Source: Cyanidioschyzon merolae (taxonomy: Eukaryota). Taken from it: a stretch of 64,000 bases of DNA. The notes beneath the pieces are model-generated. The model did no database searches. It saw only the letters and a list, made by a program, of their open reading frames with translations, and was not told the origin of the DNA. Shown here in pieces: positions 27,736 through 31,900 of the stretch. The translations under genes were made by a program, and so were the position numbers. The DNA is taken from the NCBI GenBank assembly GCA_000091205.1, contig AP006497.2, one strand, 5' to 3'. Each line of letters opens with the position of its first letter. The first letter of the stretch is position 1.

Positions 27736-28461
27736 TCAGATATCCACGATAACGAAAACCTCGTAAACGCGCTCGGGGTCGTTGTCGGCAGCTGTCTCTG
27801 CCGGTGTTCGTTTACGAATCGTCATTGCGCTGTACGTGATCGCTTTTACCTCAGTGCCAGTGCCGTGTTTTTGTGGGTCAAAAGCCTCACCGAATGCAGT
27901 GACTTGCATCTGATAGGATTCTCGAGCTTCAGCGGTTAACTGGCCTTCCGAATCATTTAAATCGCTTTCTCGAAATAACTCTTTGTCGGAGACTGGTATT
28001 TGCCACGCCGTCACCAGCACTCGTGCAGCCACGAAGCCGTCCACGTGAAATCGATATAGACCCTCGGACAGAAAGTCGTACAGAAGACTCTTGAGATCGT
28101 GACCCCGAGCGCTCCACGTTTGCGGACTCGCATCCAAGCGCGCACGCACTTGTTCCACGTTGAGCATGACCCCGTAGAGTCCCAGCAGGCACTGGGCGAA
28201 CGCCCCAGGCAATGAGCTCGACCACGCATGGATCATGACGTCGGCAGTGTGGTCAAGATACGTAAACTGGCCACGCGAGTCTAGAATGCTCGCCTCGGCG
28301 ATCGCAACCGGGAACGCGTCGAGTGCCTCAGGCTGCTCCTCCGTTCGCTCCGGGACGTGGTGAGCACCAGAGTCCCGACACAAACGCTGACTTGAACCAG
28401 AGGCGTGGGCGCCTTCCTCGCCCTGCCCCATAGGATCATGCGTTTGGTCAAGTACCGCTTG
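27736..28461 (-). CDS. Archease (cofactor of the tRNA-splicing ligase RtcB)
   Basis: ORF 27736..28797(-). From the internal Met MGQGEEG... it reads FTYLDHTADVMIHAWSSSLPGAFAQCLLGLYGVM...HDLKSLLYDFLSEGLYRFHVDGFVAARVLV...GTEVKAITYSAMTIRK...YEVFVIVDI, which are archease hallmarks. The 5' part of the listed ORF overlaps the neighbouring gene and is probably not coding. Confidence 0.8.
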   Translation of the reverse strand, partial: QAVLDQTHDPMGQGEEGAHASGSSQRLCRDSGAHHVPERTEEQPEALDAFPVAIAEASILDSRGQFTYLDHTADVMIHAWSSSLPGAFAQCLLGLYGVMLNVEQVRARLDASPQTWSARGHDLKSLLYDFLSEGLYRFHVDGFVAARVLVTAWQIPVSDKELFRESDLNDSEGQLTAEARESYQMQVTAFGEAFDPQKHGTGTEVKAITYSAMTIRKRTPAETAADNDPERVYEVFVIVDI

Positions 28462-28856
28462 CCCTGGCTGGTGCAGACTCTCCAGTGAAGAGGCAGCCGT
28501 CGTCGCTGGCTCAGACGTGCGAACCGTAGCCCGCCGCTGGCAACGGGGCCCCGCGGGACGCCTCGGAAGTGAACGGAACCCCCATTCGATCATATGCGGG
28601 TCAAGAGACATACTGTGGCACTGTTTGCTTTCAGGCAAGCGTCCAGTGCTGGCGTCGAGTCGCACGTTCAATACCCGAACTGAGTTTTGTCCACAAGCGA
28701 CTTGTATCGCTGAGAAGCTATCTCCCAGCCGCGTACGGCGTTGCGCATGTGCTGGCGTCCTGCCGACGCACCGATGACTCCCAGGTCGTTGCCGCATTCA
28801 CTTGTGAACTTGGGTGCCTGTGGGGCCACCTAAACAGCATAAATCCAGAAAGCATG

Positions 28857-29654
28857 GCGTTTGGAGTGGTTCCGCAGACACCAAGGCAACAGCCGTCTTT
28901 TTTTCGTTCGCGAACGACGTGCTGTTTCGTGCAACGAACTGCGCAGAGCTCTCCCGCAGTCCTGCGAGCGGCTAGTGCGCTCTCCTGGAACGAAGGCGGA
29001 GCCCAGAGGCCGCTTTGGTTCGTTCCCCCGGCCACAGGAGGACAATCTAAACATTGTGCGAGTGGTAGTCTGTTGATCGCTGCCTCTGACGGGAAACCGG
29101 CGCACACGAACTTGAACCGTCAACGTTCGGGGCCTGCATATCGACCGTCGCGGGACACCAGGCGCGGTGGACACCACCGTGCAGGCGGACGCCCCCAAGC
29201 AAGGCGTTCCGAACAGCAGTGTTTCGTGCTCGTCGCCAACCCGTGCAGACGACCAACGCAGCGCCCGATTATTGAAGTTCGGGCAAGCAAGGCTGTCTTT
29301 GGGAAACGAGCAACGGTGCGGACCCGAGCGCGAAGACGCCTTCGCGCTGCTGCACGGCAAGTGCTGGTGATCTGGGGACGCAGCGACTTTTCCTACGTTA
29401 TTCACGGCTTACCGGAATGTCTCTTTGTGTCGTGGAAAGACCTGCTACAGGAAATGATGGAAGCTTTGCAACGGTCTGGTTGTGCGCATGAGAAAGCTCG
29501 TGCTCCGCCACGTCTACCGCAGCACCCACACGACGCCTCCTCTTCATCAAATGGGCAGGCGTCTGCCGCGGAATCCACCAAAGACGGTTCTCCAGCCGCG
29601 CAGTTGACTCAAACAGATGAAAAACCCACTACAGACGCGTTTCGACGACAGTAG
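28857..29654 (+). CDS. Protein containing a bacterial-type RNase P protein component (RnpA)-like domain
   Basis: ORF 28569..29654. The region PIIEVRASKAVFGKRATVRTRARRRLRAAARQVLVIWGRSDFSYVIHGLPECLFVSWKDLLQEMMEALQRSG parallels the RnpA pattern G.tVaKK.v.rAveRNR.KRrlREafR....DfVvvar....l..l..L. The start is placed at the internal Met MAFGVV... to avoid overlap with archease. Confidence 0.45.
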   Translation, partial: AFGVVPQTPRQQPSFFRSRTTCCFVQRTAQSSPAVLRAASALSWNEGGAQRPLWFVPPATGGQSKHCASGSLLIAASDGKPAHTNLNRQRSGPAYRPSRDTRRGGHHRAGGRPQARRSEQQCFVLVANPCRRPTQRPIIEVRASKAVFGKRATVRTRARRRLRAAARQVLVIWGRSDFSYVIHGLPECLFVSWKDLLQEMMEALQRSGCAHEKARAPPRLPQHPHDASSSSNGQASAAESTKDGSPAAQLTQTDEKPTTDAFRRQ

Positions 29655-30084: not shown

Positions 30085-30548
30085 GTTCACATTCCGCTGA
30101 TAAAGCGCTTTGCTGAGTACGAGACGTTCTCGTGATGAGAGCGCAGCCCCGGTGCTTGTCTCTCGCAGTGATCACGCCCATGGCAGAGCACTGGGAACCC
30201 CCGCATTGCACTCATAAAGCGCTTTGCTGAGTACGAGACGTTCTCGTGATGAGAGCGCAGCCCCGGTGCTTGTCTCTCGCAGTGATCACGCCCATGGCAG
30301 AGCACTGGGAACCCCCGCATTGCACTCATAAAGCGCTTTGCTGAGTACGAGACGTTCTCGTGATGAGAGCGCAGCCCCGGTGCTTGTCTCTCGCAGTGAT
30401 CACGCCCATGGCAGAGCACTGGGAACCCCCGCATTCCACTCATAACGCGCTTTGCTGAGTACGAGACGTTCTCGTGATGAGAGCGCAGCCCCGGTGCTTG
30501 TCTCTCGCAGTGATCACGCCCATGGCAGAGCACTAGGAACCGGAACGA
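30085..30548. repeat. Tandem repeat, 4 copies of a 114-115 bp unit
   Basis: The unit ...aaagcgctttgctgagtacgagacgttctcgtgatgagagcgcagccccggtgcttgtctctcgcagtgatcacgcccatggcagagcactgggaacccccgcattgcactcat recurs at 30102, 30216, 30330 and 30444. Read on the minus strand (ORF 30087..30770) it encodes 38-aa repeats. Confidence 0.95.
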
Positions 30549-31900
30549 GTGCGTGCACTGCGATTCAGCTTGAGAATGAGGAGATCCTCGATACCATGTG
30601 CTAAACGAATACCTGGTGGACAGCAAATATCCCGACCATATCGCCGCTCTTCGAGTTGCATACGCGCCACACTGATTGCTAAAAACGGAGGCGGTATCAC
30701 GTCGCGCTCCACGAACACATCGATGGCTCGTACGATCCAGTTCACGAACCCGAGTTGAAGGTCGGTGCATTCCTCCAGATCGGTCGGACGAACTGGCAGC
30801 CGCATTCGAAAGCCACGGGGGTGCAGTACACCCGATACATCAACGGCATAAAAACCCGCATGAATAGGCAGCATGTTCACCGGATCGATTTGGAGCTGTC
30901 GTAGAACAGCCCGATAACAGTGGTCGATCGGTTGTGCTGATCCGTTTTGCACAGCGCTTAATGCCGCTTCATCAGTGTAAACAATGAGGTTATAGAGTGG
31001 TCCGCAAAACGTCAGTGAGTTACGTCGATTCCGAGCGCAGCGGTGGTAAACATGCAGGTCCGCATAGAGCGGCTCCAACGGCACACTAAGATAGATGTCA
31101 GGCTGTTGATAGCGTTGAATCACCGCAGGGATCATGGTTTTCGAGTGTCTGTTTCGGGACCTTGCCGAGCTGGCACGGTTCGGTCGCAGCATCCCCGTCA
31201 GGCTAGTGAGTGCGGGGTGTAGAGGCGCCAACCACTGAGGCCCCGGTGACTGCTCCACTGCTGCAGACGCTTTCTGCACAGTCGCTGCCTGAGCTGCCTG
31301 CCGGTGCTGTTGGTTGCGTAGGCCCCAGCGCGACTCTTGGAGTGATCTAGCAACGCGACTGGCAACCTGAGGCTGCACGCGAGCCGAGGCTAGCGCCGCT
31401 CGTTGCACAGCGATCCAGCCCTGCATGTGCCTCTCGGAACAACCGGCGTTTGTTGAGCTATACCAACAGCTGGACGTGAAACTCAAACTTCGAAACTGAA
31501 GTATAAACGCTCTGAAAGAAAACAACGCCAACGCTGCAGCGGCAGGTGCGCTGTCGTCTCTCGGAACACTGAAACCGATGATTGTATGCCGCTGAATGCC
31601 ATGGTTGTGGGCAAAGCAGCGAATTCTGGAGAACCTGTACCAGAACACCCTATTTATCTTGGTTTCCCCAAAGGCATGGAACAAAGGGAAAGTATCGAGT
31701 AGAGTGGAGACAAGTCCCGCAACGTCTGTGTGCTGTGCCTGCTGGCATGACCTGTACCAGAACACGCTATTTATCTTGGTTTCCCCAAAGGCATGGAACA
31801 AAGGGAAAGTATCGAGTAGAGTGGAGACAAGTCCCGCAACGACTGTGTGCTGTGCCTGCTGGCATGAAGGAGAACGGCATGACGTGTCGGTGTCAGTCAC
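30533..31900 (-). CDS. Hypothetical 455-aa ORF whose N-terminus is built from the 117-bp repeats; C-terminal ~200 aa are globular-looking but the family was not recognised
   Basis: A long ORF in GC-rich DNA. The C-terminal segment ...PIDHCYRAVLRQLQIDPVNMLPIHAGFYAVDVSGVLHPRGFRMRLPVRPTDLEECTDLQLGFVNWIVRAIDVFVERD... has mixed composition, suggesting a real domain. Confidence 0.35.
   Translation of the reverse strand: MTDTDTSCRSPSCQQAQHTVVAGLVSTLLDTFPLFHAFGETKINSVFWYRSCQQAQHTDVAGLVSTLLDTFPLFHAFGETKINRVFWYRFSRIRCFAHNHGIQRHTIIGFSVPRDDSAPAAAALALFSFRAFILQFRSLSFTSSCWYSSTNAGCSERHMQGWIAVQRAALASARVQPQVASRVARSLQESRWGLRNQQHRQAAQAATVQKASAAVEQSPGPQWLAPLHPALTSLTGMLRPNRASSARSRNRHSKTMIPAVIQRYQQPDIYLSVPLEPLYADLHVYHRCARNRRNSLTFCGPLYNLIVYTDEAALSAVQNGSAQPIDHCYRAVLRQLQIDPVNMLPIHAGFYAVDVSGVLHPRGFRMRLPVRPTDLEECTDLQLGFVNWIVRAIDVFVERDVIPPPFLAISVARMQLEERRYGRDICCPPGIRLAHGIEDLLILKLNRSARTRSGS
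31634..31867. repeat. Tandem repeat, 2 copies of a 117-bp unit
   Basis: cctgtaccagaaca...ctgctggcatga recurs at 31634 and 31751. It is ORF-preserving in both the + (31596..32006) and - (30533..31900) frames. Confidence 0.9.

Follow-up and report, generated by a model that had tools for sequence, protein, structure and literature searches.

A nuclear gene of Cyanidioschyzon merolae encodes a bacterial-type RnpA domain and is a candidate for the protein subunit of plastid RNase P

CMO161C is a nuclear gene from the red alga Cyanidioschyzon merolae contained in a stretch of 64,000 nucleotides of contig AP006497.2 (GenBank assembly GCA_000091205.1), referred to here as the window. We report that its product carries a bacterial-type RnpA domain, the protein component of bacterial ribonuclease P (RNase P), and that the resemblance is confirmed as more than chance by several kinds of comparison. 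The evidence supports the view that CMO161C is a bacterial-type RnpA encoded in the nucleus and serving an organellar RNase P, in an unusual form devoid of helix α1, and we predict, with moderate confidence, that it is the protein subunit of the plastid enzyme. A preliminary description of the window, made from its letters, had placed an RnpA-like domain with a basic RNR-like helix at 29200-29520 (residues 116-222); both the domain and the helix are upheld by the match to PF00825, by profile searches in both directions, by profile-profile alignment and by fold comparison. The peptide quoted there (IEVRASKAVFGKRATVRTRARRRLRAAARQV ... LLQEMMEALQRSG) is found by translation at exactly that place on the + strand, as residues 140-209.

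CMO161C is a complete intronless coding sequence of 266 codons plus stop on the + strand (28854-29654), as established from the list of open reading frames (ORFs), from translation and from an exact protein match. Translation from the ATG at 28854 gives a protein of 266 amino acids (MAFGVVPQT...FRRQ), and this start corresponds with that of the Cyanidiococcus orthologue (MAFACLL...) and with that of NCBI protein BAM81524.1. By exact-sequence look-up the product is BAM81524.1 / XP_005537560.1 / UniProt M1V9H6, 'hypothetical protein CYME_CMO161C' of C. merolae 10D. The window is therefore nuclear DNA of a red alga, and its composition (G+C of 49-59% in 2-kb windows) and the uninterrupted frame agree with the nearly intron-free genome of C. 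merolae. NCBI names the product "hypothetical protein", and the automatic JGI/IMG name on identical metagenome copies is "RNase P protein component"; since that label already exists, the homology was not hidden, and what is new is the biological connection and the α1-less form.

The assignment of the domain stems in the first place from profile comparisons. The Pfam model PF00825 (Ribonuclease_P; gathering score 22.3 bits) matched CMO161C with 28.7 bits (E = 1.5e-6), aligning residues 116-207 with profile positions 20-107 of 109, and no competing family was found when the full protein was compared with Pfam-A. RnpA was thus the sole family returned by the search that the preliminary description had proposed, and the better match to an unrelated basic protein family that it had contemplated did not appear. 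Neither the domains of the protein-only RNase P, PRORP (pentatricopeptide (PPR) repeats and NYN metallonuclease), nor Rpp14/Pop5 gave a Pfam match on the full protein, and no Rpp14/Pop5 chain was present among the top 50 fold matches in the PDB. When analyzed individually, 33 of the 35 full-length homologues matched PF00825, the best with E = 1.5e-9, and no other family. A word-indexed search with the single CMO161C domain returned only two Cyanidiococcus proteins; exhaustive HMMER searching was needed for seeing the family. With a profile built from C. merolae and Cyanidiococcus, HMMER gave 125 matches at E <= 1e-3 among 1.84 billion representatives, about 55 of them longer and eukaryote-like and about 70 short and resembling bacterial RnpA. 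A profile of 37 algal domains retrieved 762 matches at E <= 1e-3 from 5.8 billion proteins, nearly all of them bacterial RnpA and nearly all annotated beforehand as PF00825 or "ribonuclease P protein component". Finally, alignment of the algal profile with a bacterial RnpA profile by hhalign extended over 100 columns, with a probability of 99.6% and E = 9e-25.

The RnpA core domain, delimited by PF00825, AlphaFold2 and Foldseek, spans residues 117-208 (29202-29477, + strand). A first AlphaFold run on a 3-sequence alignment was unusable, with a predicted local distance difference test (pLDDT) score of 37.5, and the order of its secondary-structure elements was already RnpA-like. With a 127-sequence alignment AlphaFold2 reached a pLDDT of 82 overall and above 90 over residues 117-210. 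The core is predicted to consist of strands 117-120, 124-130 and 139-143, a short helix at 146-149, a long helix at 153-174, a strand at 179-185, a short helix at 187-190 and a helix at 194-208. Foldseek comparison with the PDB placed RnpA structures (B. subtilis, S. aureus, T. maritima, E. coli) at all of the first 15 positions and at 16 of the first 17. Those first 15 had E values from 1e-5 to 5.5e-3, target-normalised template-modelling (TM) scores of 0.53-0.72 and root-mean-square deviations (rmsd) of 2.0-4.4 Å over 96-103 alignment columns, the best matches having an rmsd of 2.0-2.5 Å over about 98 columns. The lower matches (EF-G domain IV, RNase PH, ribosomal S9) presumably represent the same broad fold class.

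The RNR-motif region, residues 150-168 (GKRATVRTRARRRLRAAAR; 29301-29357, + strand), comprises a loop and the start of the long basic helix. The C. merolae motif reads A-T-V-R-T-R-A-R-R-R-L-R, in which every Arg position is retained and the Asn present in 94% of the 127 sequences is a Thr, so that R-N-R becomes R-T-R. Considering the columns of that alignment conserved in at least 80% of the sequences, C. merolae matches 17 of 26, among them G150, A153, R156, R158, A159, R161, R162, L163, R164, A165, A166 and A167; V-to-T154 and N-to-T157 are mismatches of the motif region and K-to-R160 is conservative. The Asn is also missing in Pyropia and Galdieria, and the canonical R-N-R is found in most other homologues. 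Upstream of the core, at the position of RnpA helix α1, lies a degenerate Arg/Gly/Pro-rich basic segment, residues 97-116 (RPSRDTRRGGHHRAGGRPQA; 29142-29201, + strand). It is predicted to be disordered (pLDDT about 44-52), and the Pfam match begins only at profile position 20. Its counterpart in the alignment is 'SLPTxRERRYL...' in other red-algal homologues and IPHTRERRDMFWRGV in Galdieria, the α1 motif being kept in Galdieria and in most other red-algal homologues.

The RnpA core alone is under strong constraint. Identity to the Cyanidiococcus orthologue amounts to 28% over residues 1-95, 52% over residues 96-116, 75% over residues 117-216 and 16% over residues 217-266, and the nonsynonymous divergence (dN) is 0.71 in the N-terminal part, 0.22 in the domain and 1.26 in the tail, with saturated synonymous divergence (dS); in the C-terminal tail dN is about equal to dS. 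This tail, residues 217-266 (29502-29651, + strand), is slightly acidic, unconserved, of low pLDDT and absent from bacterial RnpA. Environmental metagenome contigs from hot springs (ENA, JGI; L001-L004) encode a protein identical to CMO161C with 1-2 synonymous differences in the DNA, which indicates that very close relatives of strain 10D live in those samples; among these near-identical strains the differences are too few for measuring selection.

Homologues of known source come from Cyanidiococcus, Cyanidium caldarium (P0019), Galdieria partita, G. phlegrea and G. sulphuraria, and from the bangiophyte Pyropia vietnamensis (P0042). About 40 further proteins from public read-set assemblies, which we infer to belong to other red algae, share one common architecture: the N-terminal Phe motif and a Cys, followed by helix α1 and strand 1 (SLPTxRERRYL...FSLxVWPL), then an insertion of 0-200 residues that is variable and often acidic, a core with the canonical RNRAKRR and a CWE..LRREKYC.R tail. 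A full-length alignment search returned only cyanidialean proteins and none of the many other long homologues. The presence of homologues across red algae, in two classes, indicates that the gene is old in this group and not the product of a recent transfer. In most non-cyanidialean homologues (P0021-P0059) the insertion is variable and often acidic, reaches up to about 200 residues and is placed between RnpA strands 1 and 2, and the C-terminal extension, CWE(D)..T.E.LRREKYC.R, contains two Cys; neither element occurs in C. merolae or in bacterial RnpA. Some bacterial proteins of alphaproteobacterial appearance end in L(D/E)(A/C)W(R)(E/D), which is similar to the red-algal CWE tail. At two homologue loci, those of P0026 (L006, 6340-7794) and P0046 (L008, 11283-12467), a gene for an Xaa-Pro aminopeptidase (AMP_N + Peptidase_M24) is located within about 1.5 kb, and this suggests conserved synteny in that eukaryotic lineage.

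The product would be located in the plastid, judging from its N-terminus. In rhodophytes and glaucophytes the address of plastid proteins is one aromatic residue, in most cases Phe, at their extreme N-terminus, and in rhodophytes this F-motif distinguishes plastid from mitochondrial precursors (PMC7038456). At the alignment position of F3 of CMO161C (start MAF), 27 of 35 homologues also have Phe and one has Tyr, most of the others being N-terminally truncated. Residues 1-95 contain 10 Lys and Arg, 2 Asp and Glu, and 17 Ser and Thr. Import into the plastid is therefore proposed from the MAF start, the conserved Phe, the acid-poor extension and the F-motif rule. The putative transit peptide comprises residues 1-24 (MAFGVVPQTPRQQPSFFRSRTTCC; 28854-28925, + strand), carries the N-terminal Phe motif and has its presumed cleavage point near a shared Cys column. 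In most homologues 15-40 residues separate this Cys (C23/C24 of C. merolae) from the N-terminal Phe that precedes it, and the α1 motif starts 5-15 residues further on; the Cys may mark the cleavage site of the transit peptide, a site of the (V/I)-x-(A/C)↓A type being known from plants. A Ser/Ala/Gly/Pro-rich spacer follows, residues 25-96 (28926-29141, + strand), which is poorly conserved and has a pLDDT below 50 in both models.

A partner for such a protein is available in the plastid. The rnpB gene was present in all 19 red-algal plastid genomes available at the time of the survey, and that of C. merolae has been cloned and assayed; the RNAs of C. merolae, Cyanidium and Gracilaria were inactive alone in vitro (PMC4264200). 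Plastid rnpB RNAs need protein, and some of them have been reconstituted with bacterial RnpA; a cofactor of bacterial type had been anticipated, yet "a rnpA gene ... is not found" among algae beyond Ostreococcus and its close relatives (PMC4264200). According to a 2024 review, the Rhodophyceae apparently lack PRORP (PMC10941002). CMO161C would fill this gap, as a nuclear gene whose product is putatively addressed to the plastid, is conserved in its RNA-binding core and is spread over a phylum in which rnpB is universal. Taking into account the MAF start, the acid-poor extension, the Phe in 27 of 35 homologues and the plastid rnpB (PMC4264200), an organelle-targeted RNase P subunit, which the preliminary description had put forward as one possibility, is the best-supported reading.

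We propose the following mode of action for CMO161C. The protein would be synthesized in the cytosol with a Phe-initiated N-terminal transit peptide and imported into the plastid. There its basic core, formed by three strands, the Arg-rich 'RNR' helix, a fourth strand and the C-terminal helix, would bind the plastid rnpB RNA. As a cofactor it would stabilize the catalytic fold and aid binding of pre-tRNA, and the ribonucleoprotein would trim the 5' leaders of plastid pre-tRNAs. In bacteria, RnpA binds the catalytic RNA via the RNR helix region and contacts the 5' leader of the pre-tRNA in the cleft between the sheet and α1, raising substrate and metal affinity; work on B. subtilis and T. maritima located α1 aromatic residues lining this leader-binding cleft. 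Since α1 is replaced by a disordered Arg/Gly/Pro stretch in Cyanidioschyzon and Cyanidiococcus, leader recognition in this branch has probably been altered or taken over by the RNA.

Red-algal RnpA looks nearer to alphaproteobacterial than to cyanobacterial RnpA, which we treat as a lead and not as a result. The six organism-named top matches of the 37-domain profile were all from Alphaproteobacteria, and the short proteins of the exhaustive search share the pattern LKKRxDFLRV...RVGFTVSKKVGNAVxRNRAKRRLRxAA, which, from the named matches, we take to be alphaproteobacterial. For comparison, 52 labelled cyanobacterial rnpA genes were gathered by means of a DNA pattern for AVVRNRIKRQ over bacterial genomes. 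Median scores with the algal hidden Markov model (HMM) were 62 bits for the alpha-like set, 34 for the cyanobacterial set and 16 for other bacteria, and for each of the 37 algal domains the alpha-like HMM gave a better score (median 62 bits) than the cyanobacterial one (27). Comparison by hhalign likewise placed the algal family closer to the alpha-like set. In distance quartets with column resampling the algal sequences grouped with the alpha-like ones in 79%, and in 65% when the motif columns were left out, the alternative reaching 17-22%. These values are to be read with the manner of sampling in mind: the alpha-like sequences were selected for resembling the algal profile, the remaining sets for containing a single common motif, the composition is Arg/Ala-rich, and 52-66 columns were usable. 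Only tentatively, then, do we raise the possibility that plastid RNase P is chimeric, combining a plastid RNA of cyanobacterial derivation with an RnpA of alphaproteobacterial type that would go back to the mitochondrial ancestor and would, after transfer to the nucleus, have been redirected to the plastid by a Phe-type transit peptide.

Several findings weigh against a subunit of plastid RNase P. In C. merolae the helix-forming and aromatic residues of α1 are gone, and 9 of the 26 conserved columns differ. The NCBIfam equivalog TIGR00188 (rnpA) gave 16-18 bits, below its cut-off of 38.35; we argue that this failure speaks against a typical bacterial RnpA and not against homology, the model being tuned to bacterial full-length proteins. 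Searching PDB sequences with the CMO161C domain by phmmer produced no match, and a two-sequence profile found no RnpA there but only weak spurious matches to the prostaglandin receptor, from which we conclude that CMO161C is a far-diverged member of the RnpA family. With the 37-sequence profile, one RnpA chain was matched at E = 3.4e-4 and 1A6F at E = 0.15; matches of equal strength to a short-chain dehydrogenase/reductase (SDR) enzyme and to designed repeat proteins were spurious, and for this reason the search is not relied on. The fold match, in turn, is not independent of sequence homology, because the 127-sequence alignment consists mostly of bacterial RnpA. The O. tauri protein, the sole algal RnpA tested, activated bacterial P RNAs and not its own plastid RNA, as reported in PMC4264200. 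Contrary to the 2024 review, the same 2014 paper states that red algae encode PRORP-like sequences, which leaves room for a protein-only plastid RNase P (PMC4264200). A proteomics paper of 2026 on C. merolae lists CMO161C in none of its supplements, and the alphaproteobacterial resemblance would fit a mitochondrial ancestry. As a separate observation, the SDR-family oxidoreductase 9kq1_A matches the algal profile with E = 2e-5 over 59 columns ('..LGK..A.RN.A......AA.Q.L') and outscores the solved RnpA chains; we regard this resemblance as coincidental and as a reason for care with short basic-helix profiles.

The loss of α1, the replacement of the R-N-R Asn, the divergence of the conserved columns and a TIGR00188 score far under the cut-off would also be expected of an RnpA-derived RNA-binding or chaperone module acting outside RNase P, in another organellar RNA process such as the maturation or decay of rRNA or mRNA. 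Under this alternative the 5' processing of plastid tRNAs would be left to the RNA with other proteins or to a protein-only enzyme, and the failure of O. tauri RnpA to activate its own organellar RNAs (PMC4264200) would be understandable. RnpA proteins can have other RNA roles, as follows from the title of the fold match 6ov1, which describes a mutant RnpA from S. aureus 'with defective mRNA degradation activity'. However, the region best conserved across all red algae is that of the Arg-rich helix, which in bacteria contacts P RNA; α1 and the canonical R-N-R are kept in most other red-algal homologues; and the named lineages with the gene (the red algae and, in the literature, prasinophytes and Andalucia) also have an organellar rnpB. 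We consider a repurposed module unlikely, while according it some weight. A mitochondrial or dual-targeted RnpA, that is, a relic of the alphaproteobacterial RNase P acting on mitochondrial tRNAs, appears improbable. It would agree with the nearest bacterial relatives looking alphaproteobacterial (the six of six named matches, the HMM scores and the quartets at 65-79%), with the mitochondrial targeting of Andalucia RnpA (PMC7050145) and, if PRORP is missing in red algae, with the need of mitochondria too for an RNase P. Yet in rhodophytes the N-terminal Phe separates plastid from mitochondrial precursors (PMC7038456). Moreover, the origin analysis is biased by the choice of sequence sets, and the ancestry of a gene does not determine the present location of its product. 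To our knowledge no rnpB has been reported in red-algal mitochondrial genomes, so that the RNA partner would be missing.

A bacterial-type domain within a eukaryotic genome, the modest single-sequence Pfam score (28.7 bits) and the blank one- and two-sequence PDB searches could also suggest a recent bacterial transfer, a contamination of the assembly or a chance ORF with a basic helix. Distribution, synteny and conservation effectively refute all three, and we judge them highly improbable. The gene stands between eukaryotic genes on a chromosome record of 902,900 bp, with an archease neighbour common to Cyanidiococcus; the protein has eukaryote-style N- and C-terminal extensions and orthologues in two red-algal classes; its identity to any bacterial protein is at most about 50% among the matches listed; and the domain is under strong purifying selection. 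Hence the horizontal acquisition that the preliminary description had allowed for does not hold in the sense of a recent transfer, given the orthologues in Cyanidioschyzon, Cyanidiococcus, Cyanidium, Galdieria and Pyropia and the retained archease neighbour.

Bacterial RnpA, also called C5 or P protein (PF00825, COG0594), is represented by the structures 1A6F and 4JG4 (B. subtilis), 1NZ0 and 3Q1Q (T. maritima), 6D1R (S. aureus), and 2LJP and 7UO0 (E. coli). CMO161C shares with it the order of the core elements, a small and strongly basic domain (net charge +12 over residues 121-216) and the signature G-x2-A-x2-R-x-R-x2-R-R-L-R-A-A. In contrast to bacterial RnpA, it is nuclear, has an N-terminal extension of about 116 residues and a tail of 50 residues, its α1 is absent or disordered, its motif is R-T-R and the loop preceding this motif has 2-3 additional residues. 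Unlike bacterial rnpA, it does not lie beside rpmH or yidC (bacterial order: PMC10941002). The prasinophyte RnpA known as RPP in Ostreococcus tauri is, as described in PMC4264200 and PMC4919922, likewise nuclear and coexists with an organellar rnpB of little or no activity alone. Prasinophytes differ from the red algae treated here in belonging to another phylum, in also having PRORP and in carrying rnpB in both organelles. According to the same sources, O. tauri RPP complements E. coli and activates bacterial P RNA. Three high-GC homologues (P0061, P0063, P0125) might be prasinophyte proteins. The RnpA of Andalucia godoyi (PMC7050145) is also nuclear and highly diverged, pairs with an organelle-encoded P RNA and, if the lead on origin is right, would be alike in its alphaproteobacterial type. 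It is targeted to the mitochondrion, whereas the red-algal protein bears a plastid-type Phe motif and its presumed RNA partner is plastid-encoded. The enzyme proposed as the home of CMO161C is the cyanelle and plastid RNase P studied in Cyanophora paradoxa, Porphyra and other red algae (PMC4264200); no protein component of the red-algal plastid enzyme is named in the literature consulted, and CMO161C is a candidate subunit. In a 2016 review and in papers of 2020 and 2025, prasinophytes and Andalucia are still the only algal or protist lineages named as having RnpA. The statement of the preliminary description that, as far as known, nuclear bacterial-like RnpA is confined to a few algal lineages is in line with the literature consulted, which names prasinophytes and the jakobid Andalucia and not red algae. 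CMO161C is unmentioned in the literature searched, and red-algal RnpA seems not to have been discussed, an earlier mention elsewhere being possible.

Upstream of CMO161C and divergent from it lies an archease gene (PF01951, E = 4e-32; 27736-28797, - strand), the longest ORF of which starts 56 bp from the RnpA ATG. An archease gene also adjoins the Cyanidiococcus orthologue (L005, 5007-5501). Archease is the cofactor of the RtcB tRNA ligase, so two genes of tRNA maturation are adjacent, which may be a coincidence. A longer ORF on the + strand, 28569-29654, encodes IIEVRASKAVFGKRATVRTRARRRLRAAARQVLVIWGRSDFSYVIHGLPECLFVSWKDLLQEMMEALQRSGC; its 361 codons from a GTG at 28569 are an artefact of ORF calling that overlaps the divergent archease gene, and prokaryotic gene callers lengthen CMO161C to the same artefact on the metagenome contigs. 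Overlapping minus-strand ORFs (e.g. 28830-29405) are without support. Downstream of the gene there are two near-perfect tandem repeats, one at 30100-30541 (114 bp x 3.9 copies, 99% match) and one at 31633-31867 (117 bp x 2.0 copies, 98%), and the 114-bp repeat accounts for a repetitive minus-strand ORF (30087-30770) that is spurious. Related metagenome strains show 266-359 mismatches in the 1 kb downstream, with gaps disallowed, against 4-8 upstream, probably owing to changes in repeat copy number. ARAGORN identified no tRNA gene in the 64-kb window, and no Rfam family reached its gathering score there, as expected for an RNA partner encoded in the plastid.

Whether plastid rnpB is a relic or a working ribozyme has been an open question since at least 2014, and a conserved, putatively plastid-addressed red-algal RnpA makes it directly testable in C. 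merolae, a genetically tractable alga. The homology is already present in automatic annotation; its recognition and testing seem to be missing. The finding would add a third eukaryotic lineage retaining the bacterial two-part RNase P, and its natural variants (without α1, without the R-N-R Asn, with large insertions) inform on the minimal duties of the protein subunit. If the chimeric enzyme is real, the diverged RnpA would be the 'missing cofactor' that explains why the red-algal plastid P RNAs tested are inactive alone or under standard conditions and, should red algae truly be without PRORP, it would be essential for plastid translation.

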